From: an uncultured Gammaproteobacteria bacterium
GTDB taxonomy: Bacteria > Pseudomonadota > Gammaproteobacteria > HTCC5015
Length of the DNA: 64,000 bases
Direction of reading: 5' to 3'
NCBI GenBank assembly: GCA_964495705.1
Contig: CAZBWS010000007.1
Location: forward strand, 688-64,687
This document shows, in pieces, positions 2,532-63,427 of the stretch. Positions within the stretch are counted from its first letter, which is position 1; each line of letters begins with the position of its first letter. The notes below the pieces were generated by a model, which was not told where the DNA came from, ran no database searches, and saw only the letters and a list, made by a program, of their open reading frames with translations. A program made the position numbers and the translations under genes.

Positions 2532-5500
2532 TTTTGTTTCACAAAAGGGAGTAAACCGATTATCAAAAATAGGCCGAGGAATATTATGTTAAAGGAGCTA
2601 GAGCCACCCGCTTTGACACTATCGTTAATCTCAGCGGTTTGTGCAATATTAGCTTCTATCAGGGAATCAGGTGTGTTGCTATTGGGTATTGATATACCTC
2701 CAGGGTCAACAATGACACCGTTTGCAAGGCCATCTGCATCATTTGGACCACCATCTTTAATAGTTAGCTCAAGACAATTAGCAAATGCTTGTAAGCCGTT
2801 AACGTAATCCTCATTCATAATGTCTGGGCAAACTCCCTCAATACTGTTGGCAGACTTGATACTGTTTTCACTGTCTTCAACAAAATTATTCCAGCCCGAG
2901 GCTAAATCAAACTTTCTATATACCGCATTGGCTGGCAAATTTATGGATAGCGGGATAACAATTTTTGCAGTGTTTTTGATTGAATTAAGCCCGTGTATTT
3001 CAAAGTCAAATAAACTACTTATTGGTGTATAAGCTGAGTCCGTAGCAACGCTATCGCTGGTCTGAGGGTCTTCAATACTCTTTTGAATATCTTCAATACT
3101 GACTTGTGCTCCAGAAGTTTGAGCTGCAATGGCACGACTGCCTAACCTCAAACTAAGTCCGGCCTCTGTTTGCATTGTGTTGATATAATTGTTTTCTAAG
3201 GGACTGACAAAAATACTTAATACATGGTTTTGAATAATAGGGTCTAAAAAGTCGGGCAGACCGTTTGAGTCACTATCGCTGGCTCCTTCAGTAACATCAT
3301 CGACTCCATCTCCATCGCTGTCAGCTGTTGTTAATGGCGTTAGTGTATCTTGCAATAATAGATTTAGGGTATGGGTTACGTTGTTGTTGCCATCGCTAAC
3401 GCTCACCGGAATGCTGTAAAGCCGACTCGCTAAGCTACTGGGGTCGAATACAACACTGCTGCTATTAACGGTGGGCATAGGGTTGAAGCTAATGTCGTCT
3501 ACCGCACTCCAGTCATAACTTAGAGTATCTCCATTTGCATCACTGGTGTTCGCGGTCAGCGTGACCATGCCTTGGTCTTTATAAATATAAATTGAATTGC
3601 TCCCCCCCTGGTTGACACTCAACGAGACTAGCGGTGGCACTTGTTGTTCGACGATAGTGATTATTTGTTGCTTTTGTACCCCAACAACAGCATTGGTTGC
3701 TGTATCTAAAGTGACAATGATTTCTTCTGTTCCCTCTATTAGTGAGTCACTGGCAATATTGATGGGTAGTGTGGCTGATAGCCCAGCGTTAATATCAATC
3801 TGGCCCATAAGTAAGTCGTGATCCAGAGGGGCACTGGCACTACCTGAAACTAGATAATTAATAGATACAGGATAAATCGCTGCTGGGCCACTCAGTTCTA
3901 CACTGAGGTTGAGTGTGCGCCCTTCCCCGCTGACTTGGCTGGCGGCCACGGAGACTATGGGAGCAATATTAACGATTTGATCTAGATTGGCTATATTGCC
4001 GGCTTGGTCTTGTGCAAACCAACTGACCGTATGCGAACCTGATAGGAACGGGCCTGTATCACTGTTAGTATTAATATTTATAACACCATCAAGAGCGTCT
4101 AGTGCACTTGCGGCTAAGTCGACAGTAGTTAACACAGCACTTGCGTCTATATTAATAGTATCAGCAGAAATGACCGGTGGCACCGTATCCGCATTGGGGT
4201 TTGAGCCTTGTGCCGCTTCTTCGGCATTAGTCAATCCATCACCATCGTTGTCTAAGCCAGCATCATTTGCATCAAAGGGGTCTAAGCCGTTGGCTAATTC
4301 AAAGCTATCTAGTATTGTATCGTTGTCATCATCTAGGTCACAAAGGTCTCCTTCAGTATCTAGATCGTTATTAGCTTGATCGGTATTGGCTGTATCAGGG
4401 CAGTTGTCTTCGTAGTCTGCTATGGTGTCTAGATCCCTGTCTGCGGTAGTCACGATTAATGTAATAGCTTCTAGTGCTGGAGTAGCGCTATCTTCCCTCC
4501 CGTCTTCAACTTGTACGCTAAAGTTATAGGTGTTTGCAGAGTCCTCCCCTGGCGTCCATGTTATTAAGCCGCCATTGAGTGTGACCTGCATATCAATAGG
4601 TGCCCCAATTAATGAGTACGCCAGTCCCGTACCTGTGTCGTCAGGGTCATTGACGATAACTTGATATTGATACTGTACAAGTTCAACAACGCTATTGGGC
4701 GAGATTGATGTGATTTGTGGTGCATCATTAACCGCTCTAATTGTTACCGACACCTCCGCCGAGGACTGGCTGCCAGCGGTATCTTGCATGATGTACTTGA
4801 ATTCAAATAATCCGTTTTCATTTAAAGCGGGGTTGAATAGCACTTGATTATTAATATCAGCAGAGTTTAGTGTCACTGTTCCCATGGCAGCAGTATAAGT
4901 GTTAGACGTACAGGCAATATCAGTTGTACCTTTGGCGCACAGGGCAATGATCCTTTTGGTATCTCCTGCATCAGGATCAGTGTCATTTGCCAGTACATCT
5001 AATAAATTATTACTCGAGTCTTCTAATACATCACTAAAGCTATTATCTGCTAAGGCAAGGGGCATATCATTTACATTGCTGATACTAATATTGACGATTC
5101 CATCCACGCTTTGCCCATCATTATCGGTAAGTGTATAAACAAAGCTGTCACTATGTATTTCACTTTCGTTGTGCGTATAGCTGAAGGTGCCATTGTTATT
5201 CAGTGTAAACGCCGCAGCTTGGTTGGGTGCTGTTTTAAGGCTAATCACAATGGGAGTATCTAATAATCCCGTATCATTGCTTGTCACATTGTTCGCACCG
5301 CCGACCAGTGCAGTCGCCGTGCCGCCTTCAGTAATAGTAATCGAGTCGTTCAATGCAGCTGGTGCACTATCACTAACTTTACTGATAACAATGCTAACGA
5401 GTCCATGGGCTGTTTGCCCATCATTATCAGTAATAGTGTAGCTAAAACTATCATTGAAATTTTCACTACCGTCGTGTTGATAGCTAAAAGTGCCATTGGG

Positions 5501-8221: not shown

Positions 8222-8254
8222 ATTATGTTAGTCTAGCTCAATAAAAGTGAGATT

Positions 8255-8897: not shown

Positions 8898-9632
8898 ATG
8901 AATAAAGTAGAGCTAGAAGAATCAAGGCGTGAGTTTTTACTCAAATCCATTAGTGCAGGGACATTGGCTATTTCGGCATCCAGTGGTTTATTAGTCCCTG
9001 CTCCTGCTCAATCTATGGGAAAAATCCCCGAAAAGCTCATCCCTGGTAAGTCTATATATGATATACGAGGAACAGTTTTAGTGGATGGTGTAAAAGCGAA
9101 TGAAGAAACCTTAATTAAAGCCTCTTCTAAGGTAGAAACTAAAAGCGGCAGTCATGTTGTTTTCGTCATTGGCTCAGATGCACATGTACTACGAGAAAAT
9201 AGTACTGTGCAATTCAAAGGCGCTGAATTTTTTGAGGAAGGGCTGCGTTTAGTCACCGGCAAGTTACTATCGGTATTTGGTGCTCGCCCTAAGCATCAAC
9301 AACATACATTACGTACATCCACGGCAACCATTGGTATACGCGGAACAGGGGTTTATACCGAGTCCTACGAGGATGCTAGTTATCTATGTACATGTTACGG
9401 GACGGTCGATCTATATGCGGATAATGATGACTATAGTGCAGAACGCATTGTTTCTAAGCAGCACGAAAATCCTCGTTATATTTTAGCTGATGGTAGCAAG
9501 GGAAAACTTATTGAAGACGCACCGATTAAGAATCACTCGGTGGAAGAGCTTATTCTTGTCGAATCTTTGGTGGGTCGCAAGCCGCCAGTATCTTTTGTAA
9601 GTGATTACAGCCCGCCTCGGGATGATTACTAA
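8898..9632 (+). CDS. Tat-signal FecR-domain-like periplasmic protein, full-length paralog
   Basis: It has a twin-arginine motif SRREFLLKS and then an A-rich h-region. FecR-like segments are IYDIRGTVLVDG...VETKSGSHVVFVIGSDAHVLRENSTVQF...TATIGIRGTGVY. An extra CTCYG-containing segment is absent from the upstream paralog. Both paralogs end in ...DY. Confidence 0.65.
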   Translation: MNKVELEESRREFLLKSISAGTLAISASSGLLVPAPAQSMGKIPEKLIPGKSIYDIRGTVLVDGVKANEETLIKASSKVETKSGSHVVFVIGSDAHVLRENSTVQFKGAEFFEEGLRLVTGKLLSVFGARPKHQQHTLRTSTATIGIRGTGVYTESYEDASYLCTCYGTVDLYADNDDYSAERIVSKQHENPRYILADGSKGKLIEDAPIKNHSVEELILVESLVGRKPPVSFVSDYSPPRDDY

Positions 9633-10317: not shown

Positions 10318-13300
10318 TTAGTTGACCAACAAGCTGCCTAAGCTTGCATAGCGCTGGCTTAAGTCAGGGTGTTGTTGCAAAGCTTGTTGATACTTATTTC
10401 GAGCAGAGCTCAATTCGCCACCACGATAGTAGGCAATCGACATGTTTATTTTAATACCGCCATCCTCTGGGTCTAAATCCTCTGCTTTTTGATAGGCATC
10501 GACAGCTTGGGCAAAGTCTCCAGAATTCAGATAGATGTTGCCCTTAGTATTATAGGCTTCTGCGCTACGTGGATTTAATATTAGCAGTTCAGAGAGTGTG
10601 TCCAGTGCGCGTTGTACTAAGCCATATTTTGCGAAAACAATAGCCATTTGGGTTTTGGCCACTTGGTTTTCAGGGTCGCTTTCTAACAGCAGTACATAGG
10701 GTTGGATGATACGATCTATGCCCTGCTCTATTAAACGATCAATTTCTATATTCACTAAACGTTGTACCGCCAGCTTAGGTGGCAATGCAAGATCATTGCC
10801 ACTGTGCTTTAAAGTGACTGGCTGGAAGTCTTTCCAAGCGTCTTTTAAAGCAATAGCGTTGAGCTTATTCTCGCCTAAATATTTATGATATTTGCGTGCA
10901 CCTTCGGCCCATGCCTCTGCAAAACTCGTATTAATCATCGTTGCTTCGATAGGTACCCAGACAAAGCCATCTCGAATGACTACGAGACTTTCCTGTTGAC
11001 TAATGACTGTACGATCTCTTTCAGGGATGCCTGTATTAAACATCATTAACAAATGTCCTGGCACATCTAATAATGCAGTCGCGATGCCTAAGTTTTCTAA
11101 GCTAGTACTCAACAACACAGAAAGATCGTCACAGTCACCGCTTTTGAGCTTTAAGGTTTCACGGGCAAATTGAACATAATCCACGGTATCTTCACCTAGC
11201 TCGGCAAAGGGATTGCTGGGGTCCACTACATAGCGAATACCCAAGGCATTAAAACTGTTAAATAGTGTCATTGCAGACACTAAGCTTTCGCTGAGTGGAC
11301 CATGTTCAGGCTTGTATTCGTTAATAGCCTGACGCACAAAGCCTCGTAACAAGTCGTCTTTGGGAGTGACGAATGAGCCAGCCATATGAGGTTGAGACCA
11401 AGTGATAGCATTTTTGCCGTGTATCGTCATGGGGCGAGTAATACTGATGCTGTCCTTCTGACCGTTACGCACAAAATTGAGTTTGATCTCAACTTGCACA
11501 CCAGTGTCTTCATCAATATCTAAGACTTGGTTGTTAAATGCTGCATTTAAAGGCAGTTCTATACTTTGCCCTCCTGAAATCATATTAATCGGCGTTGTCG
11601 TGGGGAAGTCCATATAGCCCTTTACATTAAAGCTTAAGCTCAGGTTGCCATAGCTCGTTGCAGCAGCGTTGCGCACCACAATGCTGCCAACGGGTTTATT
11701 AGAATACTGTTTGTAAGCAGCTGAAAAAATGGGGTGTATATTAAAATTTTCAAATACAAGCTGAGGTTGATTAAAGCGAAATTCTTCAGATTTCTTTTTT
11801 TCTGCGTAGGCGGCATTAACTAAGTTTTTATTTTCTACGGAGGGGGTAATCTCTGCGGCTTTTTCATAGCTTTCTATAGCGGCTTCATACAGCCTACGCT
11901 GTATATAGAGGTCGCCCTGGGTAACAAAGGCCGTAGCTAACTTAGGGTTTAATATTAAGGCCTGCTCAATTGCAGCCAGTGACTGATCATATAAACTGTT
12001 GTGTAAATACAGTGTCGCCAAACGAACGTGTAAAGTTGCATCAGTTTTATCGATAGCAATAGCTTTGCGAATACTTTCCAGTGCATCGCCAGTCTTTCCT
12101 TGTTGTTCTTGAATTTTCGATTTGGTTAATAAGGGCTTAATATTTTTAGGTTGTATGCGGATAGCCTGCTGGGCGTGCTTTTCAGCTTGTTTAAGAGCAC
12201 CAGAATGAGCTTGCGCTTCGGCCATCGCAAGGTGTGTCGAAAAGTCATTAGGCTTAATTTGTAATGCAGTTGTTAACGCGCTGACGGCATCATCATTGTT
12301 ATTATTAATAAAGGCCGCACGGCCATAGGCAAGTTGAGCGTCATGACTTTGAGGATTGTTGGTAGCGGCAGTTTGTAGTGTTTGTAAAGCCCTCTCCTTC
12401 TCTTCTCGCTGAGAGTATAAAGCCGCTAGCGCAATCCATGCAGGAACATTGTTAGCATCCGCACGGCTGGACTTTCCCAGTGATAATAGTGCAGTTCCCT
12501 CATCTTTATTTGCCAGAGCAACAACACCGAGTAAGTAATTCCCCTCAGATAGCGTATCCACATTGCCTGCCAGAGCTATAGCAATATTTCGGACTTCTTC
12601 GTATTTCTCTTCTAATAGATAAACATTCGCCAAGCCCAATTGGGCTTGAGTATTTTCACCTTGCAGGCTTATAGCGTGTTGATACTTAGTCGTTGCTAAT
12701 TCGTATTCTTGAAACTGCACATAGATATCACCCGCTTCAGACCATAGTAAAGCCGCATCTGTACGTTGCTTATCAGTCAAGCCTTCTACATCAATACTAC
12801 CTGCTAAAGCTTTTTCTAGTTGTGCAAAACCTTGTTCTTTAGCTCCGACTTTTAAATATGCCCTGCCTAATAGCAGCTGGCTGTGGATATGCTCAGGCTG
12901 TAACTTAATTGCCGCCTCTAAGCAGTCTACTGCGCCAATTGCATCATTCATTTCAAGGCTTAGCTGGCCACAATATAGCTGTGTTTCTGCGTCGTTAGGG
13001 GCTTGTTTAATCAGTTGTTGAACTAAGGCGAGAGCTTCAATGAATTGCTGGTCTTCGTGTAAAGTCTCGACCTGCAATTTAAGCCCTTCTTCTCTAAAGC
13101 CGTCAACATTAGCGAGAGACTTAAATTGGCTTAAAGCCGCTTCACTTTGTCCCATCTTTTTATAGCTTAAACCTAGATACTTTATGGCTGCAGCATGTTG
13201 CGGGTTTTGCCCAATGGCTATACTGAGTATTTTCTCGGCTATATCGTACTCAGCATTTTTATAACCCTGATAAGCTTCTAAGAAGATATCTTCAACACTA

Positions 13301-16411: not shown

Positions 16412-17383
16412 ATGAATAATAAATCCACTTCTTTTCAGGCGATGCGCAACAAACTGCAAAGCTGGTTTAACAGTCGAATAGAGCGCCACGGAAATAGTAT
16501 TACGCTAACGGGACGGTCTGTTTATGTCATCCCAACACGTTATGGTTTTATGCTGGGGATAATGCTGCTAGGCTTGCTGCTGGGGTCGATGAACTACAGC
16601 AATAGCATGTCCTTTATGTTGACGTTTTTACTGGCCAGTATTGCTTTGCTGGGTATGCATTATACCTATGGCAATATAGTGAAACTAAAAATTAATGCGG
16701 GGAATATAACGCCGATATTTGCAGGTCAGTGTGCGAATATTCCCTTTCTTTTATCTGCATTAAATGAACGCCCGCGCTACGGTTTATTCTTAGGTGATGC
16801 GGATAGGCTGCAGCAACCGGCTAATGTCGAACAACCTCGTTCGCCACTCTATTTTAAAACACAGGCCTTAAGTCGAGGCCGCTATGTGCTACCTCGTACA
16901 AGGATATGGACTACATTTCCCTTTGGGATTTTCTATAGCTGGGCTTGGTTGAAACTGGATCAAATCGTATTAGTTTACCCGCAACCACAGAATTTTTTAG
17001 CCGAACTAGAATCTGAAGGGCAACAACAAGGTGAACTAAGCAGTACTCGTAAGGGCGATGATGATTTCGCTGGCATTCGCCGCTATCAAGAAACAGATTC
17101 ACCCAACCGCATTGCATGGAAAGCGCTAGCCCATAGCGGTGACTTACTATCTAAAGACTTCCATGGAACGACAGATAATAATATCTGGCTTAACTATGAA
17201 CTGCTCATGCAGCTTGAGCCCGAAGAGCGCCTCTCGCAACTATGCCAATGGGTGTTGGACTGTGAACGCGATCACCTGCCCTATGGCTTGTGTCTACCTG
17301 GTTACAGGGTAGATATTGACTTAGGTGAACGGCATAAAAAGCACTGTTTAGAGCTACTTGCCCTATTTGAGATACGACAGTGA
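16412..17383 (+). CDS. DUF58-family protein (MoxR partner, vWA-related)
   Basis: It starts immediately after the moxR stop. It has two N-terminal TM helices and the conserved DDFAGIRRYQETDSPNRIAWKA segment typical of DUF58. Its stop overlaps the next gene's start (GTGA). Confidence 0.85.
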   Translation: MNNKSTSFQAMRNKLQSWFNSRIERHGNSITLTGRSVYVIPTRYGFMLGIMLLGLLLGSMNYSNSMSFMLTFLLASIALLGMHYTYGNIVKLKINAGNITPIFAGQCANIPFLLSALNERPRYGLFLGDADRLQQPANVEQPRSPLYFKTQALSRGRYVLPRTRIWTTFPFGIFYSWAWLKLDQIVLVYPQPQNFLAELESEGQQQGELSSTRKGDDDFAGIRRYQETDSPNRIAWKALAHSGDLLSKDFHGTTDNNIWLNYELLMQLEPEERLSQLCQWVLDCERDHLPYGLCLPGYRVDIDLGERHKKHCLELLALFEIRQ

Positions 17384-19371
17384 GCCTATTTAACAACAAG
17401 CCAGCACTAGAGGCGGTTAAGAACCCCGTACTGAACTCTAAGCATCTCATTCTTCTGATGTTGGTGATTATCGTAGCTAGTACAGCACACTTTCTACGCA
17501 TGCCGATTACCCTTAGTGCTTTAATTATTAGTGCACTCGGCTTAAAGGTACTTATGTTGTGGCGTGGTCGTATTGCCGCTAATAGATTGATGTTATTACT
17601 ATTTACCATCGTAGTCACTGGCTTGGTGTTTATTAATTATGGCACTATCAATGGCCATGAAGCAGGTTCGGCTTTACTGGTGGGTATGTTAGGGCTGAAA
17701 TTATTGGAGGCTAAAAACCATCGTGACGCGATGATCTGCCTATTTCTAACTTATTTTCTCACAGCCGTTAACTTCTTGTTTACTCAAAGTATTGCCACTG
17801 CTGCTTGGATGTTTTGCCAAGTGACTATCATTACATTCTGCTTGATTACCCTGAGCCAAACCCAATATAAAAGCCCTTGGAAATTTAGAGCCAAATTTGC
17901 TGTTAGGAGCGTGCTGCAAGCCGTTCCTATAATGGTTGTTTTGTTTTTACTCTTTCCTCGGATACCAGGGCCCCTGTGGGGGATTCCGAAGCCAAATAGC
18001 TCCGCTACAACCGGTTTTTCGGACACTATGTCGCCAGGTCAATTTTCTGATTTGGCAAAATCAGCTTCAGTGGCTTTTCGAGTTAAGTTTGAAGGGGATA
18101 TTCCCCAACAAAACCAACTCTATTGGCGAGGCCTAGTACTGTGGCACTACGACGGGTTTACATGGAACAAGGGTAAAAGTGTCAACTCTTATGCCTCAGC
18201 TTTTGAAAAACAAGGTGAGGCAATCGATTATACAGTGACATTAGAACCACATAAAAAGAAAACCCTGTTTACCCTAGACATGCCCGGAGATTTTAAGAAT
18301 GCGTATAGGCTGGATAGGAACTTTCAACTCAGCGCTAAGCGCGCAGTTACCCAGGTGATCCAATATCAGGTTAGCTCATTCAACACGTATCGAATAAATG
18401 CACAGTTAGAGCCTTTTGAATGGCGCAAAGGCTTACAACTACCTCGTGATTACAACCCTCAAACTATTGCGCTGGGAAAGCAGTGGAAACAGGATATTGG
18501 GGATCCTGAGAAAATTGTTGATAAAGCGCTACATTTTTTTAATCAAGAACCGTTCTATTACACCTTACGTCCACCACCTTTAGGTAAGCATAAGGCGGAT
18601 GACTTCTTATTTAATACGCGCAAAGGTTTTTGCGAATATTATTCTAATGCATTTGTTATTTTAATGCGTGCAGCGGATATCCCCGCACGAGTAGTTGTCG
18701 GTTATATGGGGGGTGAGCGAAACCCTATTAATAACAATCTAACCATTCGTCAATCAGATGCCCATGCCTGGGCAGAGGTCTGGCTTAGTGGCCGTGGTTG
18801 GGTGCGTATCGACCCTACCGCTGCGGTTGCTCCGTCTCGTATAGAGCAAAATCTCGATGCCGCCTTACCTGAAGAAGATCGCAGCGCCCTGCCCTTTTTC
18901 AGTAAAGCCTCACCACTAAAAGGTCTAGTTAATCTTTGGGATGCTATCGATAATGGTTGGAACCAATGGGTGCTAGGCTACAACCCAGAGTTTCAACGCA
19001 AGTTTTTAGCGCGTTTTGGTCTCGAAGACTTTATGCAATTCACCTATGCCATGATCGGACTTATCGGTATTGCCTTAGCCCTGTTTAGTTTCTGGATGTT
19101 ACGCCCGATTAATAAAATAAAACTCACTGTAACCCAGAAGACATTTAAAAAATTCTGTCAACGCATGGCGACTAAAGGCTATACAAGAAATAGCCACGAA
19201 ACTGCTAGTGATTATATAAAGCGTTTAATAAAAGTGATGCCCCAGCAAGAGCGGCAATTACTAGAGATTGCCCGCACTTATAATCGCTTGCGCTATGAAA
19301 ATGAGACTAGCGATAGACTAGAACACTTTCAGAAGTTGGTTAATGGGTTTAAGGCTGATATTAAGCCATGA
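17380..19371 (+). CDS. tgpA: Transglutaminase TgpA-like membrane protein (DUF3488 + transglutaminase core)
   Basis: It has a polytopic N-terminal domain. The classical Cys-His-Asp core is GFCEYYSNAFVILMRAADIPARVVVGY...SDAHAWAEVW...WVRIDPT, followed by a C-terminal TM. The gene order is the same as the Pseudomonas moxR-DUF58-tgpA locus. Confidence 0.9.
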   Translation: MSLFNNKPALEAVKNPVLNSKHLILLMLVIIVASTAHFLRMPITLSALIISALGLKVLMLWRGRIAANRLMLLLFTIVVTGLVFINYGTINGHEAGSALLVGMLGLKLLEAKNHRDAMICLFLTYFLTAVNFLFTQSIATAAWMFCQVTIITFCLITLSQTQYKSPWKFRAKFAVRSVLQAVPIMVVLFLLFPRIPGPLWGIPKPNSSATTGFSDTMSPGQFSDLAKSASVAFRVKFEGDIPQQNQLYWRGLVLWHYDGFTWNKGKSVNSYASAFEKQGEAIDYTVTLEPHKKKTLFTLDMPGDFKNAYRLDRNFQLSAKRAVTQVIQYQVSSFNTYRINAQLEPFEWRKGLQLPRDYNPQTIALGKQWKQDIGDPEKIVDKALHFFNQEPFYYTLRPPPLGKHKADDFLFNTRKGFCEYYSNAFVILMRAADIPARVVVGYMGGERNPINNNLTIRQSDAHAWAEVWLSGRGWVRIDPTAAVAPSRIEQNLDAALPEEDRSALPFFSKASPLKGLVNLWDAIDNGWNQWVLGYNPEFQRKFLARFGLEDFMQFTYAMIGLIGIALALFSFWMLRPINKIKLTVTQKTFKKFCQRMATKGYTRNSHETASDYIKRLIKVMPQQERQLLEIARTYNRLRYENETSDRLEHFQKLVNGFKADIKP

Positions 19372-22078: not shown

Positions 22079-23093
22079 CGATTTTCTCACTTGCTAGCAA
22101 GTCTTGAATTTCGTTTAACAAGGCAGTGCTAAAATCATTTGGCAGCTGCGCTTCTACGGGGACATACAATAGCTTATCAGCGCCTAATTTTCGACACTTA
22201 ACGGCGTCTTTTTCGGTCATTAAGACCGGTAAGTCATCATCAAACTGTACATCAGCCAATTCAAAGTGGTGATGATCGGGTTTTGCATGCTCAATACACT
22301 GAATGCCCCGCTCTCTCAGTGTATTAAAAAAACGTTGCGGATTACCTATACCCGCAATGGCGTGTACCGTATTAGCACTAAAGTCTGTCAATGTAGCGAC
22401 CGGCTCATTATTGCTCACCGATAATACGCGATCTGCTATTAGGCGCATTACTGGAAAATGCTGGTAGTTTTGGCTATTCGCCACGATAAAGTTGACCTTA
22501 CGCAGGCGTTCAGGTGGCTCGCGCAAGGGCCCTGAAGGGAGCAAGTGCCCGTTGCCAAGGCCCCGTGTTCCATCGATCATGGCAATTTCTAGCTGCCTTC
22601 CCATGGCATAGTGCTGCATGCCGTCATCAGAGAGAATTAAATCCAGCTCATAATGAGCCAGCAACAACTTTATGGCTTGCACACGGTCTGCGCCCACTGC
22701 CATAGGACAGTGCAAGTGTTGGTAGATCATGTAGGGCTCATCGCCTACCTGCTCTGGTAGGCTATCCGCATTTAACAGGCTAGGCTCATGTTCACTGGCG
22801 GACTTATAGCCGCGACTCACAATACCTATGCGGATAGGCTCACCATCGGCTTTTTGTTTAGCTTGTAATAGCTTGCCTAGCCAAATAATAAAAGGGGTCT
22901 TCCCCGTACCGCCCACGCTAATATTACCCACGACTATAATAGGTACCGCGGCCTGGTACTGCGCTGACAAGCCTTTTGCATAGGCTTTTTGACGCCCCCA
23001 AACGACCGCTTTTAATACGTAACTTATGGGTCGCAGAGCTAGGCTGAGCGGGTGGGACTCATACCAAATGTCATTCCAGAGATTGTTGGGCAT
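22071..23093 (-). CDS. lpxK: Tetraacyldisaccharide 4'-kinase
   Basis: It has the P-loop [13 protein letters not shown] and the SRGY motif, with lpxK-ycaR-kdsB synteny. Confidence 0.9.
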
Positions 23094-25956: not shown

Positions 25957-28266
25957 TTATTTAATGTGCTTTTTCAATTGCCAACGCCGTTGCGCATGTC
26001 TTCTGAAGCAACTCAATCGAGATTTGGAGTATTCCAGCATTCCACAATCTGAAGTTGCAGCCTTATTTACACTTGCATCCCTATACCTCTGCAGAACCTT
26101 GGCATGGGGGTGTCCGAAGCGACTTCGATAGCCTGCGGAGAAAATAACCCAGTCAGGATTAACGGCTTGTATAAAGTTCGTGCTAGATGAGCTATTACTG
26201 CCATGATGAGGGGCCAGTAATATATCCGACTGTAAGCTGGCACTATTATCGACAAGCCACTCCTCTACGGCTTTTTCTATATCCCCCGTTAGTAAAACAG
26301 ACTGGTTTGCCGACGAAATGCGCAACACACAGGAACGATTGTTGTGTGTTGGCCTTATTTTTGTATGCCCAGGTAATTTAGAAATGGGCCAGAGCATATC
26401 AAAATTAACACCATCCCATTGCCACGAGCTGCCTCGGTGACATTGTTTCGCATTTAAACTGGTAAATACGCGTTCTGGTTCGCCACTGATTACACTGTAA
26501 ATATCGACACTCTCAATCAAATGTGCCAGTCCCCCAAGATGATCTTTGTCGCCATGAGAAAGTATTAATTTATCAATTTTATTAATATGCTGGTTTTTTA
26601 GATAAGGCAGTACAGCGGCTTGAACCGTATTGAATCCAGAGGGAAATTCGGGCCCAGTATCAAATAGCAATGAATGATTCTGAGTTTGTAAAAGTACCGA
26701 TAACCCCTGACCAACGTCGATAACTGCAAGTTTAAAATCACCTTTTTCTAACACCTGCTTGGCAGGTATTAAAGCTATTATGACAAGTATAGCCATCATC
26801 ATTTTTAAGTACTTAGCTGTGCCTCTCGGCCAGAGGACTATAAGCATCAATAGTTGTAGTAATACAACTTGTTCAATGCTCAGTTGCCAGCTAATTGGGC
26901 TCGCCCAGGTGGCGGCATTAAATGCTTCAAGGAAGCTTAAAATACCTCGATATATTTCATCAATAAAACTGAGTATCCATACATTAGAAGTCGGCATGAG
27001 AATTTCTAATAAGCTTGCAAACAAGCATAAAGGCAATAAGACAACACTTACTAGGGGTATAAGCACCATATTTGCTACGGCCCCTAGTGTTGCTGAGCTG
27101 CCAAAGTAATATTGTAGAATAGGCCATAGTAGTACAGGTAATAGCAATTGAATTAAAAACACCTTCTTTGCCTTAGGTAGATAGGCTGGGAGTACATGTA
27201 AAATATAGGCTATCCAAGCCACTGCCAGAAATGACAGAAACAAGCCTGCCCCTAACACAGCGGCAGGCTGAACCAATAGAATAAGTACTAATGCGATAGT
27301 AAAACTCTGTATTGAAAGCATGCGTTTACCCAGTGCGCATGCTAGATAAGCGACCGACAACATGATTAAGGCACGCTGTGTAGAAAGAGATAGCCCCGCC
27401 AGTATTGAATAGGCAGTGCAACCTAACCAAGAGCAAGCTAAATAGACTTTCAAAGGTGTGCGCCTGTATATGGCTATGCTGAGAAAGCGAGGTAGGAAAG
27501 TGGCATGCAAGAGAATAAATACTAGCGTTTTAGCTAAAAAGTAGAAAACTCCAGCTAACATGCCAATATGTAGCCCAGAGATAGCAAACAAATGAGCTGT
27601 TCCGCTATCAATAAATAGTTGGCGTTGGGCATAGCTTAAGCCATGTTTCTCTCCGAGCACCAGTGCAGCAACCAGGCTGCCTGCATCACCTGGATATGAC
27701 TGCAAGGAGTCCCATAGTCTTTGGCGAATATTTAAGCCCAAAGGGCTATATAGCCTATCCGCATGACGAATATAGCCTCGCCCATGCAAGTTGCGAGACA
27801 ACATCCATTTTTCATGGTCAAAGCCACCTGGGTTGGCATAGCCGTGAGGTCTTTTTAAGCGCACGGTAAATAGCCATACCTCACCTACTTTGGGGCTTAC
27901 TGCGTCATCGTACCAATTGAGCTGTAGTGATTTTATGTTTGCAATGGGTTGACTGTTTTTTACATCAACGATTAAGCGCCAACCCTTGTGTCGCTTTACC
28001 GGAATTTCAGCGATTCTGGCCTTAATTGAAAGGTCTTTACCCTCTAGCTCAAGGGGGAGTAAATGATGGTAATAATCGTTTAAATAATTCCCCCCCCATA
28101 AAAAACCAATAAGTATCATCAACACAATAAAATAGTTTGATAGACATCGTTTAGAGAATAAGTAAACGCTAGCTATAAAGGCAAATAGAGAGACTAACAA
28201 GCTAGGCTCCGGCCAGTAAAATGCCGACAATATACCCAGAATAAATGCCGTAGATGCTATGAGCAT
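25957..28266 (-). CDS. comEC: DNA internalization competence protein ComEC/Rec2
   Basis: It has a polytopic competence domain (LFIDSGTAHLFAISGLHIGM). The C-terminal metallo-beta-lactamase domain carries LILSHGDKDHLGG and APHHGS. I chose Met18 (28266) as the start so it does not overlap the divergent gene; the track ORF extends to 28317. Confidence 0.9.
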   Translation of the reverse strand: MLIASTAFILGILSAFYWPEPSLLVSLFAFIASVYLFSKRCLSNYFIVLMILIGFLWGGNYLNDYYHHLLPLELEGKDLSIKARIAEIPVKRHKGWRLIVDVKNSQPIANIKSLQLNWYDDAVSPKVGEVWLFTVRLKRPHGYANPGGFDHEKWMLSRNLHGRGYIRHADRLYSPLGLNIRQRLWDSLQSYPGDAGSLVAALVLGEKHGLSYAQRQLFIDSGTAHLFAISGLHIGMLAGVFYFLAKTLVFILLHATFLPRFLSIAIYRRTPLKVYLACSWLGCTAYSILAGLSLSTQRALIMLSVAYLACALGKRMLSIQSFTIALVLILLVQPAAVLGAGLFLSFLAVAWIAYILHVLPAYLPKAKKVFLIQLLLPVLLWPILQYYFGSSATLGAVANMVLIPLVSVVLLPLCLFASLLEILMPTSNVWILSFIDEIYRGILSFLEAFNAATWASPISWQLSIEQVVLLQLLMLIVLWPRGTAKYLKMMMAILVIIALIPAKQVLEKGDFKLAVIDVGQGLSVLLQTQNHSLLFDTGPEFPSGFNTVQAAVLPYLKNQHINKIDKLILSHGDKDHLGGLAHLIESVDIYSVISGEPERVFTSLNAKQCHRGSSWQWDGVNFDMLWPISKLPGHTKIRPTHNNRSCVLRISSANQSVLLTGDIEKAVEEWLVDNSASLQSDILLAPHHGSNSSSSTNFIQAVNPDWVIFSAGYRSRFGHPHAKVLQRYRDASVNKAATSDCGMLEYSKSRLSCFRRHAQRRWQLKKHIK

Positions 28267-28310
28267 GCGGTATTGTCCTTTATAATTCTGTGACTTACAG
28301 CGGTCACTCC

Positions 28311-28883
28311 ATGTCACTAAAGCATAGACTACAAAAACTACTCCCTTCTCCAGAGTCTTTTAAGCAAGATAAACGCTTAAAAATACTGGGGGACTGGTTA
28401 CATGACCCAAACATTTGGCATATCAATCGTCGTTCGGTATCAGGGGCTTTTGGTATTGGCTTTGCGGCTGCATGGTGCCCCTTTCCGATACAAATGTTTT
28501 TAGCGGCTGCTCTGGCCATCTACTTTCGTAAAAACCTACCCGTAGCCGCATTTACAACCTGGATTACCAACCCAATTACCGTTCCCCCCATGTTCTATTT
28601 TGCTTATTGGGTCGGCACCCTAATACTGGGTATTCAGCCCATCAGCTTGATGGACTTAGACATACAACTATCTCTAGATTGGTTTTTTACTCAGCTAGGG
28701 GCTAGCTGGAGACCCTTTTTCTTAGGTTGCGCTGTACTTTCTATGGTCTCAGGAACACTGGGGTATTTGGCCATGCAATTGCTTTGGCGCTACCATGTAT
28801 TGACAAAGATTAAGCAACGTAAACAGCGAATGATCAATCGTATACGACACACCCCTCCTATGGACGATCAAAACACTGACTGA
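28311..28883 (+). CDS. DUF2062-family membrane protein
   Basis: It has the conserved pattern ...NIWHINRRSVSGAFGIGFAAAWCPFPIQMFLAAALAIYFRKNLPVAAFTTWITNPITVPPMFYFAYWVG. It is divergent from comEC, as in Pseudomonas. The track ORF starts at 28290. Confidence 0.75.
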   Translation: MSLKHRLQKLLPSPESFKQDKRLKILGDWLHDPNIWHINRRSVSGAFGIGFAAAWCPFPIQMFLAAALAIYFRKNLPVAAFTTWITNPITVPPMFYFAYWVGTLILGIQPISLMDLDIQLSLDWFFTQLGASWRPFFLGCAVLSMVSGTLGYLAMQLLWRYHVLTKIKQRKQRMINRIRHTPPMDDQNTD

Positions 28884-30097: not shown

Positions 30098-30121
30098 AGC
30101 TGGCACTTAATCGGTACAATG

Positions 30122-40700: not shown

Positions 40701-41175
40701 TGATGCAGCGTTGCCCACCGACTCTGGACCACAGATTGATTTGGGCATCCCCTCACTTCTACCTTCCGACTATGTACCCGATGTGCATATGCGTTTAATG
40801 CTCTATAAGCGCATATCCAATGCCGATGACTTAATTGAACTGAAGGATGTTGAGATGGAGCTTATAGATCGCTTTGGCCTCTTACCCGAAGGCGCTAAAA
40901 ACCTCTTACTAGTGGCTCAAATGAAGTTATCCGCATTGAGCATGGGGATTGGTAAAATAGACGCTGGAAAAAATGGAGGTCGAATAGAGTTTACCCCTCA
41001 CACCACGATCGACCCAGGTACACTCATCATGTTGATTCAACGCAACCCTGCGACCTATCATTTTAATGCCCCAGAGAATAAACTGCGCTTTAAATGTGAG
41101 TCTGACACAGCTGAGGAGCGTTTCGAGTTTATCTTTGCTATGCTCGACGCATTAAGCCAAAAAACCACCCAATAA
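37711..41175 (+). CDS. mfd: Transcription-repair coupling factor
   Basis: 1154 aa. It has a UvrB-homology N-terminus, an RNAP-interacting region (GAPVVHEHSGVGRYQG), superfamily-2 helicase motifs (GDVGFGKTEVAMRAAF, DEEQRFGV, TATPIPRTL) and the TRG motif region. Confidence 0.95.
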   Translation: MITLPPIPQHSGNTFTWGQLYGSAKALAIAEAAKQFKGLSLVIVDSAQEAWQLEASIKFFLGAQKLPILHFPDWETLPYDVYSPHQDIISERLSSLYQLPQVQHGLLILPAISLLQRLPPVDYLDQQAFIAKVGDRLDIDALRARLERSGYSYVTQVLEHGEFAVRGALIDLFPMGHAQPYRIDLFDDEIESIRDFDPETQLSNAKHAEIRLLPAREFPLHEQAISEFRGRWRDRFEGDPQSCVVYKDVSNGLAPAGIEYYSPLFFTKTASLFDYLPKKTLVLQASPVDSSNEHFWEQLAHRHEQRRHNTERPILEPDELYLRPKDSKQALAAYPHIQLQSFEAAETLTHKHNFSARQPDSFQLKVKEQDPSAKLRLFTENCEKNILFIAESAGRRESLLELLRGINIHPKQVQSWDEINQQPSNNGHFISVAPLPEGLDLPELVIIAESQIYGERVSQSRRRRKSSGQKDAQAIINSLEDLSIGAPVVHEHSGVGRYQGLQTLQLGDIEHEFLTLEYANEDKLYVPVSDLHLVSRFTGAPADSAPLHKLGSETWGKQKARALKQARDVAAELLAIHAKRAAKQGQQFKLPVVEYELFSSGFPFEETADQHDAINAVLEDMQKTQPMDRVVCGDVGFGKTEVAMRAAFMASMNQKQVCILVPTTLLAQQHFENFQNRFADWPVRVECLSRFGGKKKQDATIADLGDGKVDIIIGTHKLLQPSIKFNDLGLVIVDEEQRFGVRHKEMMKKMRAEVDILTLTATPIPRTLNMAMSGLRDLSIIATPPQRRTAVKTFISEWNDDQIREACQRELSRGGQIYFVHNKVENIGKIAAQIEAIVPEARAAVAHGQMGERELEQVMLDFYHQRVNLLVCTTIIESGIDVPTANTIIINRADHFGLSQLHQMRGRVGRSHHRAYAYLIAPHEKAMSADAAKRLQAIESLEDLGAGFTLATHDLEIRGAGELLGSEQSGQIQEVGFGMYTDMLDRAVKALKSGVDFDAALPTDSGPQIDLGIPSLLPSDYVPDVHMRLMLYKRISNADDLIELKDVEMELIDRFGLLPEGAKNLLLVAQMKLSALSMGIGKIDAGKNGGRIEFTPHTTIDPGTLIMLIQRNPATYHFNAPENKLRFKCESDTAEERFEFIFAMLDALSQKTTQ

Positions 41176-44787: not shown

Positions 44788-44790
44788 CGC

Positions 44791-45336
44791 TTAAGACTTC
44801 GCGGCGTAGATAGCGTTGAGATTGCGATAGTAGCCCTTATAGTCCATGCCACAGCCAAACACGTATTGATCCGGCAACTTTAGTCCTACATAGTCCGCTG
44901 CAATATTGGGAGCACGTCGCTGATGTTGTTTATCGGTCAGCACGGCAATTTTCAAAGAGGCTGGCGCTTGCTGCTGCAGTGCCCCTTTGATCGCTAGTAG
45001 AGTATGGCCTTCGTCCAAGATATCATCTAATACGAGAACATGGCGATCAGATAAATTGGCTTGGGGCGCCGCCTTCCACATGACTTGTTCACCACGCAGT
45101 TCACCGTTGTAACGGGTAGCGTGTAGATAGTCTTGCTGGTGCGGGAAGTTGAGGCGCTTACATAACTCTGCGGTAAAAAACAAACCACCATTCATAACAC
45201 ATAGAAAAACCGGATCTTTATCTGCATAGTCAATGCGGATAGCTTCTGCCAGCTGGTCTAAGGCAGTACTGATTTGGTCTTCATTGAATACAACGGTGGC
45301 CGAGTCGAAGGCCTTTTGCGCTTCTAGTAGTGACAT
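44791..45336 (-). CDS. hpt: Hypoxanthine-guanine phosphoribosyltransferase
   Basis: It has the PRPP-binding motif HVLVLDDILDEGHTL and a typical length of about 180 aa. Confidence 0.85.
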   Translation of the reverse strand: MSLLEAQKAFDSATVVFNEDQISTALDQLAEAIRIDYADKDPVFLCVMNGGLFFTAELCKRLNFPHQQDYLHATRYNGELRGEQVMWKAAPQANLSDRHVLVLDDILDEGHTLLAIKGALQQQAPASLKIAVLTDKQHQRRAPNIAADYVGLKLPDQYVFGCGMDYKGYYRNLNAIYAAKS

Positions 45337-53129: not shown

Positions 53130-54143
53130 TTAAGATTTTACCACCCCCCCTATACCAACTGCCTGCCTTAAACGCGTAATAAAAGGTTGTGCATAAGTCC
53201 TAGCCTTGGCCGCCCCTTCTTGTAGAGCCTGCTCCACTTCAGCAGGATTGGCTAATAACTCGTTATAACGCTCCCGCGGCTCAGCTAGAATATTATTAAG
53301 GTACTCAAATAGTTCCTGCTTCGCCTCACCCCATGCAATACCTTCCTGATAGCGTATCCGCATAGCCGCCACCTCTTCTGCTGTAGCAAAAGCTTTGTAG
53401 ATCGCAAACACCGTACTCGTATCGGGGTCCTTTGGCTCACCAGGCTCTAAAGAATTAGTCACGATTTTCATGATTTGCTTACGGAATTTTTTCTCAGGCA
53501 AAAACAAGGGGATCGTATTGTTGTAGCTTTTACTCATTTTGCGGCCATCCAGGCCTTCGAGCACTGCAGCATCCTCACCAACCACTGCCTCGGGCAACAC
53601 AAAGTGTTCCCCATATAGATGATTAAAACGTTGTGCCATATCCCTGGCCATTTCAATATGCTGGATCTGGTCCTTACCCACGGGGACTTTACTGGCATTG
53701 AACATCAACATATCCGCCGCCATCAAAATAGGATAGTTAAACAACCCCATCGTCACAGCCTTATCTGGATCACTGCCCTCCTCTATATTGGCATCGACAG
53801 AGGCCTTATAAGCATGGGCCCTATTCAACAAGCCTTTGGAGGCCACACAGGAAAGCAACCAATTCAGCTCAGTGATTTCAGGCACGTCTGATTGGCGATA
53901 AAAAACCACATTTTGCGTATCAAGGCCCATCGCTAGCCAAGTAGCCGCCACTTCTAAACTAGATTGGCGTACGCGCTCTGGATCTTGGCACTTAATCAAG
54001 GCGTGGTAATCTGCCATAAACAAGTAAGAGTCGACCGCAGCATCCTTGCTGGCCTCTATCGCAGGGCGAATAGCGCCCACATAATTACCTAAATGAGGAG
54101 TGCCCGTTGTTGTAATGCCCGTTAAAACCGTCGGTTTAGCCAT
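53130..54143 (-). CDS. trpS: Tryptophan--tRNA ligase
   Basis: The class I motifs are TPHLGNYVG (HIGH-like) and KMSKS. I prefer the ATG at 54143 over the track's GTG at 54152. Confidence 0.9.
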
Positions 54144-54735: not shown

Positions 54736-55123
54736 GGTTACCCTTTTTATTCATTGTTCTGCCAATAGTCTGACAGAAGGCTTACAGCACAGCAATTTGG
54801 CACTTAACGGCCACAAAAATCTGTACGCTTAAAAAACAAAACCAAGGTATTTATGGTTTCTATGTTGCCAAGGATAACATGAAAAACAGCGCAGTTTATA
54901 TATGCACTTATTGGGTTTTCGGAATTAAGCACAGGGTGAAATTTAATGCGGATGGGCTGAAAAAGTGGCGTGGGTCTTGTGCATTAATGGGCGCAGCTTT
55001 GTACTAAAGGTACAGCGCAACACCGTGGAGCGATTTTGCTCGCATTAGTTAGATGTAATATTATAGGAAACCAGTCATGTCTTATGTAAAGACCTTTCTA
55101 TGCAACTGGCAATATTCAAACCG

Positions 55124-55906: not shown

Positions 55907-57199
55907 TTAGGAGCAGCTAATAATGATAATTCCGCGCAGCTTATCATCCACATAAAGCAAAGGACAATATGCGCGTAACCAATGTGGTACCTTGGCCTCT
56001 TGAAAAGCGTTCTTTAGGCTTTTACTGTGCTGATGTCCCACTTGATAAACTCGTGTGGAATTGGGCTGGTTAAATTTTATATCAACGTGCACTGTTGCTT
56101 CAGGCAAGCGGATATTTTGTTGCTGAAGCAGATCTTCATTCAACTCAAGCTCTAATTCCTTTATAACTAGAGAAGACGTTGTATTCCAAACGCTGTATTT
56201 TTCAGGTGTAAGGCTGGCACGCTGCTTTTCTAATTGCGTATCACAGCAATACAGTCTGCCCCCATAGCTTCGTATGATCACACTGTCATCGAACTCTCCC
56301 CAAGTTACCTCACCCTTAGCATCTTGACGCGCATCTAGTAATTTCTGTATCTGCGCCAATACCCCTTGACTGGGAGTGGCCGCCCCCTGCTCTTGTAACC
56401 ACAGGCGTAATAATGCGGATAGCTTGCTAGCAGCGAGTTTTTCAGCTGGCGCAAAAACGCCTTCCTGGGTATTTTTCTGTAGCGCAGCTTGTAATTCAGC
56501 ATTGAGCAAAATTTGTTGCTCTGCCAGCAGCGCCGCACTGCGTGCCACCGTTGTATTCGCACTGGGCCAGCGCTGCTGTAGGAGTGGCATCACCCGATTA
56601 CGTAGATAATTACGATCATAATTATCTTCAAGATTACTGGGGTCTTGAATATAAGAGAGTTGATATTGCTGCGCATATTCTTCTAGTTCGGCTCGGCTTT
56701 TTGACAGCAAGGGGCGGCCTTGACGGCCTTGACCCAATGCTTTTATCGCGGGCATAGCGGATAAACCTGCTGGCCCTGCTCCGCGCATCAGCTGTAATAA
56801 TAAAGTTTCTGCCTGATCATCTTGATGGTGGGCGGTGAGCAATACCGATGCTATATCCTGTTGAGCGAATAGTGTTTCAAAAGCGTGGTAACGCCCTGCT
56901 CGGGCCGCTTGCTCAGGGCTTTGCCCCTGGGCGGCTTGGGCGTTAATGCGGATAGTCTGAAAAGGCATATTATAGGCAGAGCACTTCGCTTCACAATGAC
57001 TTGCCCATGCCTTAGATTCAGCTTGCAGGCCGTGGTCAATATAAACCGCTAGAAGTTGTGCGTGTAGCGAGCCTTGCAGTTGAGCCAGCGTATGCAACAT
57101 GACACTGGAATCTAGGCCGCCGCTGTAGCCAATAATTAACAGGGTGTTTTTATTGTTAAGCTGATAGCGCTCAAGGAAGTTGAGAAGGGTTTGTTGCAT
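55907..57199 (-). CDS. tilS: tRNA(Ile)-lysidine synthase
   Basis: It has the PP-loop IIGYSGGLDSSV, the HHQDDQAET motif, and a position downstream of accA. Confidence 0.9.
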   Translation of the reverse strand: MQQTLLNFLERYQLNNKNTLLIIGYSGGLDSSVMLHTLAQLQGSLHAQLLAVYIDHGLQAESKAWASHCEAKCSAYNMPFQTIRINAQAAQGQSPEQAARAGRYHAFETLFAQQDIASVLLTAHHQDDQAETLLLQLMRGAGPAGLSAMPAIKALGQGRQGRPLLSKSRAELEEYAQQYQLSYIQDPSNLEDNYDRNYLRNRVMPLLQQRWPSANTTVARSAALLAEQQILLNAELQAALQKNTQEGVFAPAEKLAASKLSALLRLWLQEQGAATPSQGVLAQIQKLLDARQDAKGEVTWGEFDDSVIIRSYGGRLYCCDTQLEKQRASLTPEKYSVWNTTSSLVIKELELELNEDLLQQQNIRLPEATVHVDIKFNQPNSTRVYQVGHQHSKSLKNAFQEAKVPHWLRAYCPLLYVDDKLRGIIIISCS

Positions 57200-61765: not shown

Positions 61766-61877
61766 TGGAGCGTGCTTAACTTATAGCGATACAGGGGCGT
61801 AAGTGTGGTGATTTAGTCTGTTAACTTCAAGTCTTGTTTTTCAATTTATAAGTACATAATGCGGATAGCCTATTTAG

Positions 61878-62834: not shown

Positions 62835-63427
62835 TAATAGACCCTCATCTGACCTTTTAATATGCCTTGGATTTGTACCTGATCTGCTGGGTACAACATC
62901 GGCTGCATAGTGCTGTTAGCGGGAATTAGCTTGATCTGATTACCTGCGGTGTACTCTATCGTTTTTAAGGTCACATCCTGCCCTTCAACCAAAGCGACAA
63001 CAATGTCATAGTTATTCGCTGTATTGGCCGATTCAATAACCACCCAATCTCCGTCATAGATGCCTTCGTCAATCATAGACTCGCCCTTCACTTTTAAGGC
63101 ATAGCGATTTGATCCTGCGAAGATATGGTTGAGGTCGAGGCTGTCTTCGTTGGCAACTGCCTCTATGGGTTGACCGGCAGCGATAGAACCTAACAAGGGA
63201 ATACAACCCGGAGCAATATCATCTTGAGCAATAATGCGGATACCTCGGTGACGACCGGTTTTCTCGATCATACCCGCCTCTTCTAAAGCGGCGATATAAC
63301 GATGTACAACACCCTTAGAATTGATACCTAAGCCTTCACCAATCTCCGTCAGCAAAGGCGCTTGGCCCTGCTCCCGAATGTAGTTAACAATAAAATTATA
63401 AACGTCTTGTTCGCGTGGGGACAACAT
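62834..63427 (-). CDS. lexA: LexA-family SOS repressor (S24 autopeptidase)
   Basis: It has a winged-HTH N-terminus (LSPREQDVYNFIVNYIREQGQAPLLTEIGEGLG), the Ala-Gly cleavage site in GSIAAGQPIE, the catalytic Ser in VKGESMID and the catalytic Lys in VTLKT. Confidence 0.9.
   Translation of the reverse strand: MLSPREQDVYNFIVNYIREQGQAPLLTEIGEGLGINSKGVVHRYIAALEEAGMIEKTGRHRGIRIIAQDDIAPGCIPLLGSIAAGQPIEAVANEDSLDLNHIFAGSNRYALKVKGESMIDEGIYDGDWVVIESANTANNYDIVVALVEGQDVTLKTIEYTAGNQIKLIPANSTMQPMLYPADQVQIQGILKGQMRVY

Follow-up and report, generated by a model that had tools for sequence, protein, structure and literature searches.

The DNA analysed here is a window of 64,000 nucleotides (64 kb) from contig CAZBWS010000007.1 of an uncultured gammaproteobacterium (assembly GCA_964495705.1). 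By Pfam annotation the window is an ordinary region of the core chromosome. It encodes a large Ig/cadherin adhesin, a TPR/NHL protein, MoxR and TgpA, together with ribA, kdsB, lpxK, msbA, exbBD, comEC, lolCDE, sfsA, mfd, a panE-like gene, hpt, mscS, nagZ, ispDF, ftsB, eno, kdsA, pyrG, trpS, tilS, accA, dnaE and lexA. Scattered within and between these genes are copies of a nine-base word, ATGCGGATA, which an earlier note on this DNA, made from the letters alone, had singled out as a candidate DNA-uptake-like signal. The full signal is wATGCGGATAGSCTg and the 13-base form of the word is ATGCGGATAGSCT; the word, its carriers and its probable function are the subject of this report.

Copies of the word in the window

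The copies are listed below. Sense and antisense are relative to the coding strand, offsets are frame offsets, ORF stands for open reading frame, and L numbers denote loci with which the window was compared.

4186..4194, minus strand: copy in the adhesin gene; sense, offset 1, ..NAD..
9415..9423, plus strand: copy in ORF 8898-9632; sense, offset 1
12155..12167, plus strand: copy ATGCGGATAGCCT in the TPR/NHL gene; antisense, offset 2, ..AIRI..
16797..16809, plus strand: copy ATGCGGATAGGCT in ORF 16412-17383; sense, offset 1, ..DADRL..
22759..22771, minus strand: copy ATGCGGATAGCCT in lpxK; sense, offset 1
22828..22840, plus strand: copy ATGCGGATAGGCT in lpxK; antisense, offset 2, divergent with the copy at 22759..22771
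27752..27764, minus strand: copy ATGCGGATAGGCT in comEC; sense, offset 1
30121..30161: convergent inverted pair, copies at 30123 (plus) and 30145 (minus), between convergent genes; terminator-like
33553..33561, plus strand: copy near the sfsA 3' end; antisense, offset 2, HIRI; also in L002
33629..33637, minus strand: copy in sfsA; sense, offset 1, arisen by non-synonymous changes relative to L002 and L001
38706..38718, minus strand: copy ATGCGGATAGGCT in mfd; antisense, offset 0, AYPH; also in L002 and L043
40928..40936, minus strand: copy in mfd; antisense, offset 1, LSAL; also in L044
42977..42989, minus strand: copy ATGCGGATAGGCT in the terminal codons of the panE-like gene; C-terminal extension without counterpart in the L034 ortholog
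45233..45241, plus strand: copy in the hpt-like gene; antisense, offset 2, AIRI; also in L034
49070..49082, minus strand: intergenic copy ATGCGGATAGGCT between eno and ftsB
53355..53363, minus strand: copy in trpS; sense, offset 0, MRI
56413..56421, plus strand: copy in tilS; antisense, offset 1
56946..56954, plus strand: copy in tilS; antisense, offset 2
61859..61871, plus strand: intergenic copy ATGCGGATAGCCT between dnaE and ORF 61878-62834
63234..63242, plus strand: copy in lexA; antisense, offset 2, GIRI
18299..18312, plus strand: degenerate copy ATGCGTATAGGCTG; one core mismatch, extension intact
35549..35563, minus strand: degenerate copy TTGCGGATAGCCTGT in the PAD_porph gene
54946..54959, plus strand: degenerate copy ATGCGGATGGGCTG; one core mismatch, extension intact

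An exact search of the window finds 21 copies of ATGCGGATA, 11 on the plus strand and 10 on the minus strand. This is the count given in the earlier note, whose list of coordinates is correct apart from 49073, which is off by one (the copy lies at 49074). As ATGCGGATAGSCT differs from its own reverse complement, the word is non-palindromic and the two orientations are counted separately. The expected number is 0.52 on average, with a maximum of 3, in 100 dinucleotide shuffles of the window and 0.39 under a third-order Markov model, which makes the excess approximately 40-54-fold; the rough figures advanced before were about 0.5 expected copies and a 40-fold excess. An unbiased k-mer scan of the window ranks ATGCGGATA and its extensions first in over-representation at every k from 8 to 13.

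The core is continued by G and then S-C-T in 14 of the 21 copies, as had been noticed. The two resulting longer words, ATGCGGATAGGCT and ATGCGGATAGCCT, occur six and five times, with fewer than 0.01 copies expected of each. The surplus extends to imperfect copies. With one mismatch the 9-mer occurs 25 times against 11.6 expected (all five such copies cited earlier exist) and the 13-mer eight times against 0.07; with two mismatches the 13-mer occurs ten times against 3. Altogether 29 sites in the window resemble the 13-mer with at most two mismatches, where about 3 are expected. The degenerate copy in the PAD_porph gene has a possible counterpart in the L002 ortholog, TTGCGGATAGGCTG, the positional match having been judged by eye without alignment.

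Coding sequences (CDSs) of 13 unrelated genes hold 17 of the copies (81%), and the other four are intergenic, a division that the earlier note had drawn in the same way. Its gene identities are borne out by Pfam for the adhesin, TPR/NHL, LpxK, ComEC, SfsA, Mfd, PanE-like, Pribosyltran (hpt), TrpS, TilS and LexA; its labels 'FecR-like' (8898-9632) and 'DUF58' (16412-17383) have no Pfam match at 1e-5 and are tentative. ORF 16412-17383 has the MoxR AAA_3 ATPase on one side and TgpA on the other, which is where a DUF58 protein is usually encoded.

As a control we used 1.0 Mb of viral contigs, chosen for holding one chance copy of the 14-mer. Further copies of the 9-mer occur there at 0.017/kb, compared with 0.33/kb in the window; the inverted pair was not found in the viral contigs searched, and their 14-mers are single chance matches.

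The word is restricted to one clade of uncultured Gammaproteobacteria

Compared with proteins from metagenome assemblies, the window's Mfd has identities of 93%, 91%, 84% and 80%; its identity to that of gamma proteobacterium HTCC5015, an unclassified gammaproteobacterium and the best named relative, is 71%. Below HTCC5015 the matches, at 56-60%, are diverse and include unclassified or sulfur-oxidiser-type Gammaproteobacteria. By these relationships the host belongs neither to the Neisseriaceae nor to the Pasteurellaceae.

A strict pair pattern, ATGCGGATAGSCT followed after 0-30 nt by AGSCTATCCGCAT, was searched in two collections. Among 185,579 GTDB species representatives it matched one unrelated contig and no relative; in JGI and other metagenomes it matched 36 loci, 31 of them in the clade. 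The remaining five loci and the GTDB match, which hold the pair only, were treated as coincidental and excluded as carriers of the word. One clade organism recovered in this way is Ga0105356/Ga0105355 (identical to Ga0209395), with a GC content of ~0.50; word-bearing contigs in Ga0105356 reach 203 kb. A second is PDWJ01 (GCA_002754885.1), with a GC content of ~0.57, whose Mfd is the 80% match. PDWJ01 loci are 83-90% identical to Ga0105356 loci, and the L034 orthologs of window genes 42973-46452 have 76-91% protein identity.

In 243 kb of relatives (the Ga0105356/Ga0209395 organism, the PDWJ01 organism and L002) there are 79 single copies, or 0.32/kb, nearly the density of the window. The frequency is therefore far above expectation outside the window as well, which was one of the checks that had been proposed, and the excess of ATGCGGATA is a real, strong and clade-wide signal. 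The same word is present in at least three related uncultured species that span a GC content of 45-57% and whose Mfd proteins are at least 80% identical. Syntenic loci of 11-23 kb each from L003 (Mfd 77%), L041 (76%), HTCC5015 (L001, 71%) and L042 (69%) contain neither an extended copy nor a comparably enriched word. L003 (18.7 kb) has two copies of the 9-mer without the extension and no convincingly enriched word, and was treated as motif-free or indeterminate. Within mfd itself, each of four clade members has one to three copies, located at four different sites, and four outgroups have none.

The word is thus restricted to one clade: it is present at Mfd identities of at least 80% and absent at 77% and below. 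This clade is uncultured and previously unrecognised, is roughly of genus to family level, and has gamma proteobacterium HTCC5015 as its nearest named relative. Extrapolation from the 64 kb of the window and the 243 kb of relatives suggests on the order of 10^3 copies per 3-Mb genome.

Several other features of the compared loci deserve mention. The GC content of the syntenic sfsA-mfd locus is 0.385 in L003, 0.45 in the window, 0.51 in L002, 0.58 in L043 and 0.60 in L042, and that of mfd in the syntenic set ranges from 0.41 to 0.65 at 69-93% protein identity, an unusually steep range for a small clade. L014 (PDWJ01019715.1) has, at ~4090-4200 (minus-strand positions 2248-2337), a perfect tandem array of about nine copies of the 11-bp unit GGCCTGGAAAT. 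In HTCC5015 the over-represented CAAGGGCATAAAGGC of L001 was considered as a 'dialect' of the word and rejected as intergenic, flanked by conserved sequence and REP-like (repetitive extragenic palindromic). Four intergenic copies of caaGGGCATAAAggcgc, with partly conserved flanks, lie in the same locus (DS990601.1; 5478-5580, 8206-8230, 9001-9020) and look like a REP-like repeat family unrelated to the window's word.

Two further groups of pair matches stand apart from the clade. L004 (7300-7500), L006 (5960-6320, minus strand) and L031 (1985-2345) have in common a non-coding-looking element of ~170-200 nt that closes with an identical 31-nt hairpin, GATGCGGATAGGCTGCCTGAGCCTATCCGCATT. The 13-nt stem of this hairpin is the one that the gammaproteobacterial word forms, with no dispersed copies on its contigs, and the element matches no Rfam family at the gathering threshold. 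These loci are probably from Bacillota (one is a labelled Bacillota metagenome-assembled genome and one has a T-box leader), and the element resembles the 3' terminus of a structured RNA not yet described, or the end of a mobile element. L010 (OHMW01003223.1; 2374-2518, 6271-6325) is an enterobacterial-type locus with the small RNAs SraC/RyeA and SdsR/RyeB, and carries at the contig end a 55-nt inverted pair with the same 13-mer arms; coincidence or an artefact of the assembly end is the probable cause.

Copies arise by point substitution and are maintained

In a sequence logo built from 98 single copies, only position -1 (A/T) and positions 1-14 are informative. The other flanks are flat, with an information content of at most 0.23 bits at every position beyond +14. 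Ortholog codon alignments place the motif sites in alignable columns, with substitutions rather than insertions at 10 of the 11 sites examined. In mfd, the codons GCC-TAT-CCG-CAT (AYPH) are common to the window, L002 and PDWJ01, and in the outgroup L003 the peptide is unchanged, with CCA in place of CCG. At the second mfd site, 40928..40936, L002 differs solely by a synonymous TCC/TCT change. At sfsA site 33629 the word owes its existence to replaced residues in a variable part of the protein, where ADI stands against AQA and AKT. We conclude that point mutation creates the copies, at places where the protein can bear them, and that insertion of an element does not. The word can also reshape a protein terminus: the panE-like gene (42973-43983, minus strand) closes with a six-codon extension, ..ADADRL*, which is essentially the motif and which the L034 ortholog lacks.

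Once formed, the copies persist. In a 19-kb inter-species alignment with 75% DNA identity, four of seven motif positions are identical between species, compared with 9.0% of all 9-mers (p=0.0018); the word is under active maintenance.

These observations bear on the possibility that the word is the footprint of a mobile element, be it REP or the bacterial interspersed mosaic element (BIME) with its RAYT transposase, a miniature inverted-repeat transposable element (MITE), or an element that inserts in frame, similar to the Rickettsia palindromic element (RPE). The intergenic inverted pairs do resemble REP doublets, and one PDWJ01 mfd copy lies inside a 4-codon insertion. However, flanks that are flat beyond 14 bp and copies of which 81% in the window lie in intact conserved CDSs, aligning column for column with word-free orthologs and differing by point substitutions, do not fit such an origin, and on the flanks and the substitution pattern we rule out a REP/MITE/RPE-type element. 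The flank logo proposed earlier accordingly yields no single repeat family. The original argument against REP and MITE reached the same end by too general a premise, namely that such elements cannot sit in intact ORFs: Rickettsia palindromic elements do.

A polar signal such as Chi or the FtsK-orienting polar sequences (KOPS) is the other possibility of this kind, the word being short and G-rich as these are. The GC skew of the plus strand is negative throughout 20-64 kb, which places this stretch in one replichore. Within these 44 kb of uniform skew the orientation of the copies splits 8:9, and over the window 11:10, so there is no replication polarity; the earlier note had already seen no orientation bias in the strand count. 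Chi and KOPS closely follow the direction of replication and are enriched only a few-fold, and a signal of this type is ruled out by the lack of polarity. A mobile or polar origin, taken together, is in our view highly improbable.

Reading frames and codon choice reflect the DNA word rather than the proteins

Relative to the coding strand, the CDS copies of the window are eight in sense and nine in antisense orientation, and they occupy five of the six frames. Two frames prevail: xAT-GCG-GAT-Axx (Ala-Asp) with seven copies, and antisense xxT-ATC-CGC-ATx (Ile-Arg-Ile) with six. No copy occupies the frame in which ATGCGGATAG reads TAG (0 of 17 in the window, 0 of 55 in the relatives). The profile of the relatives matches that of the window, with 26 copies in sense+1, 12 in antisense+2, ten in antisense+1, five in sense+0 and two in antisense+0, and a sense to antisense ratio of 31:24 for single copies in ORFs; the word thus has no polarity relative to transcription either. 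The copies in the window are also spaced more evenly than random: the coefficient of variation is 0.62 against 0.93, a value as low being reached in 1.9% of simulations.

The dominance of the Ala-Asp and Ile-Arg-Ile frames is what one would expect if the excess were a by-product of protein sequence or of codon or composition bias, for instance of a recurrent xADx or xIRI peptide. We find this barely credible. The five occupied frames lie in unrelated proteins. Given the 34 compatible peptide contexts and the codon usage of the window, 0.89 motif sites are expected and 17 are observed, and all six compatible x-I-R-(I/M) contexts use the exact motif codons; codon choice thus exceeds the peptide-based expectation, and the constraint is on the DNA word and not on the proteins. 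Moreover, intergenic copies are enriched, not depleted (in the relatives, 24 of 79 single copies fall in the 10% of DNA that is non-ORF, p=5e-7), the word is identical across species whose GC content varies from 45 to 57%, and composition is already accounted for by the Markov and shuffle expectations.

Inverted pairs at gene ends

The pair at 30123/30145, between convergent genes, forms a 16-bp hairpin (-27.2 kcal/mol), after which the sequence runs TTTTTTA. The earlier note had called it a terminator; the fold and the U-run justify the label terminator-like, although a simple terminator scan of the window did not call the pair. Convergent pairs are frequent: four unselected pairs were found beyond the 36 metagenome loci selected for a pair. 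Some pairs have arms that differ in S (GGCT on one, GCCT on the other) and hence a mismatch in the stem; each arm is therefore retained as a word and not only as a pairing partner. By a hand count, about 37 pairs include six with mixed S, where a hand estimate for random mixing gives about 14.

Could the role in RNA be the primary one, with pairs selected because they terminate transcription or stabilise RNA as hairpins, and with the single copies inside genes being decayed halves or by-products? The frequency of convergent pairs (the 36 found by pair search as well as the four extra ones), the strong hairpin with its U-run between convergent genes in the window, and matching-S arms commoner than random mixing predicts all lend it some support. 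Nevertheless, only two of the 21 window copies belong to a close convergent pair, and the 17 copies inside genes are single, in both orientations (eight sense, nine antisense) and without a partner arm. Single copies are conserved across species and drive codon choice, which decayed half-terminators would not do. A terminator needs no given 13-mer, yet the identical stem recurs at dozens of unrelated loci, and most pairs have no T-run. We therefore regard a primary role in transcript ends as improbable. The pairs likely act as terminators too, as a secondary role.

Comparison with known uptake sequences

Uptake signals are known as the DNA uptake sequences (DUS) of Neisseriaceae and the uptake signal sequences (USS) of Pasteurellaceae, the only two families named as carriers (10.1101/2025.10.24.684340). 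By published accounts they are 9-12 bp long, number hundreds to thousands of copies inside genes and between them, form inverted repeats in terminators, contain a stop codon when read in one of the frames, are biased in frame and differ as dialects between clades (10.1101/2025.10.24.684340, PMC3630211). The earlier note knew of no described uptake sequence with this core, and neither do we find one: the 9-mer, looked for in the literature in either orientation, matched primers or other sequences by coincidence only, and topic searches returned no report of a third uptake-signal lineage or of this word.

The USS of Pasteurellaceae comes as a Hin-type (AAGTGCGGT) and an Apl-type (ACAAGCGGT), with the minor pilin ComN/PpdA as predicted receptor. 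Like it, the word belongs to a gammaproteobacterial host, is non-palindromic and of similar length, lies in both orientations in genes and between them, forms inverted pairs at gene ends, uses biased frames and has accumulated by point mutation. TGCGG is the only stretch of sequence it has in common with the USS, and AATGCGGAT and AAGTGCGGT can be lined up on that core. GCGG, present in the word, comprises the four bases critical for Haemophilus uptake (PMC3458573), and the conserved inner core of the USS is GCGGT (PMC12616744). In contrast to the USS, GCGG is followed in the word by ATAGSCT, with position +1 invariably A and not T; there are seven to eight further specific 3' bases, no AT- or T-rich tracts and flat flanks. 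The host lies outside the Pasteurellaceae, and the density is roughly half. The shared 5-mer is weak evidence of a common origin, and possibly a lead towards shared receptor ancestry.

The DUS of Neisseriaceae (ATGCCGTCTGAA and seven or more dialects) has ComP as its receptor. The word resembles it in its length of 12-13 bp, in combining a strong core with weaker outer bases, in being clade-specific and absent in more distant relatives, in having one frame blocked by a stop, and in forming inverted pairs that likely serve as terminators. The coexistence of GGCT and GCCT variants recalls simDUS and kingDUS in Simonsiella (PMC3630211). However, the sequence is unrelated: the DUS is a GCCGTCTGAA-like 10-12-mer whose CTG core and A at +10 are conserved across all its dialects (PMC3630211), and no alignment brings these into register with the word. 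Alignment of the two through the ATGC start or the AGGCTG segment was dropped as not meaningful. The host class is Gamma- and not Betaproteobacteria, the density is lower and no ComP has been identified. By these comparisons the word belongs to neither DUS nor USS, and the best explanation appears to be an uptake signal of a third lineage. A variant of this explanation would be that the word is a true uptake signal whose GCGG is shared with the USS through common descent of a ComN/PpdA-like receptor across the Gammaproteobacteria.

The word as a probable DNA uptake sequence

We propose that wATGCGGATAGSCTg is probably a DNA uptake (enhancing) sequence of this clade. The proposal is made because the excess, the presence in both orientations, the restriction to permissible frames, the point-mutational origin, the maintenance, the spacing, the intergenic pairs and the clade restriction all match what is seen for DUS and USS. 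The interpretation under which the word was first reported is, as far as sequence analysis can carry it, supported: the frequency does not fall back to expectation beyond the window, the copies are not one repeat family with conserved flanks, and they have no strand or replichore polarity.

Uptake bias, a receptor and competence of these organisms are predicted by analogy with Neisseria DUS/ComP and Haemophilus USS. On this model the competence/type IV pilus machinery would have a receptor at the cell surface that binds double-stranded DNA with the 13-14 bp word in either orientation. Tagged fragments from the same clade would then be preferentially imported through ComEC, the inner-membrane DNA import channel, and recombined. 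Biased uptake together with homologous recombination ('molecular drive') would fix mutations that create the word and resist those that destroy it, such that it would build up where coding allows (synonymous sites, variable protein segments, C-terminal extensions and intergenic DNA, never in the TAG frame). Inverted pairs at gene ends would double as transcript-end hairpins. The window does hold an intact comEC (25957..28317, minus strand), whose DUF4131, Competence and Lactamase_B domains bear out the earlier identification.

A number of observations weigh against this proposal. comEC is the only competence gene seen in the DNA examined, and ComEC is widespread also in non-transformable bacteria. 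A regular-expression search of the window and of ~0.3 Mb of related loci, a small and non-random sample, found no ORF of the prepilin type, the class in which a receptor would be sought. Typical densities of Neisseria DUS and Haemophilus USS are ~0.8-2.5/kb, above the 0.33/kb of the word, and L002 has only 0.2/kb. Most of the related loci were chosen for holding a pair, the selected pairs being removed before single copies were counted. The pair of the window was passed over by the simple terminator scan, and few pairs carry a clear T-run. Lastly, over-representation alone does not separate uptake bias from any other sequence-specific drive.

This last point opens the way for a different reader. 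The word could be the site of another abundant DNA-binding activity, such as a nucleoid-associated protein, a methyltransferase or epigenetic system of the kind proposed for cyanobacterial HIP1, or a repair, recombination or defence nuclease that takes tagged DNA for self, and could have been multiplied by selection or by biased repair or gene conversion. Excess, orientation independence, clade restriction and conservation indeed show only that something reads the word, and a pilin or receptor gene was not found in the DNA sampled. A hyper-abundant word with a non-uptake function has a precedent in cyanobacterial HIP1 (GCGATCGC; preprint 10.64898/2026.06.24.733823). HIP1 is likewise short, dispersed in coding DNA and conserved within lineages. 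However, it is an 8-bp palindrome tied to DNA methyltransferases, and most methylation sites too are palindromic or have at most seven specified bases, whereas the word is a non-palindromic 13-mer with no known modification; a HIP1-like palindrome is ruled out for ATGCGGATAGSCT. Sites for nucleoid organisation and segregation (matS, parS, SlmA sites) number tens per genome and are not found in every other gene. We know of no restriction-modification or methylation target that is enriched 40-fold, nor, to our knowledge, does any non-uptake reader system yield a 13-bp non-palindromic word at such density. The stop-frame avoidance, the terminator pairs and the spacing match DUS and USS specifically. 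A different reader is for these reasons unlikely. In the same measure it is doubtful that the word is a self-DNA tag for an orientation-independent recombination, repair or defence system, other than uptake, that would spare or favour tagged DNA, which would be a class of signal without described precedent.

Implications

If the word is an uptake sequence, these Gammaproteobacteria would be a third lineage with sequence-specific uptake, with a different word and a GC content of 45-57%, beyond the two host-associated families. By their relationship to HTCC5015 the hosts are probably free-living, and self-preferring transformation would then not be peculiar to mucosal commensals. The clade would provide an independent test of the molecular-drive model, and the GCGG shared with the USS would bear on the question of convergent or divergent origin of uptake signals; common descent of a ComN/PpdA-like receptor, if true, would support a divergent one. 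Closely related motif-bearing and motif-free genomes would form a natural data set in which the receptor could be sought by co-variation. For the binning of contigs from the clade the word offers an inexpensive marker, and should these organisms be brought into culture, it would be a design rule for transforming them.

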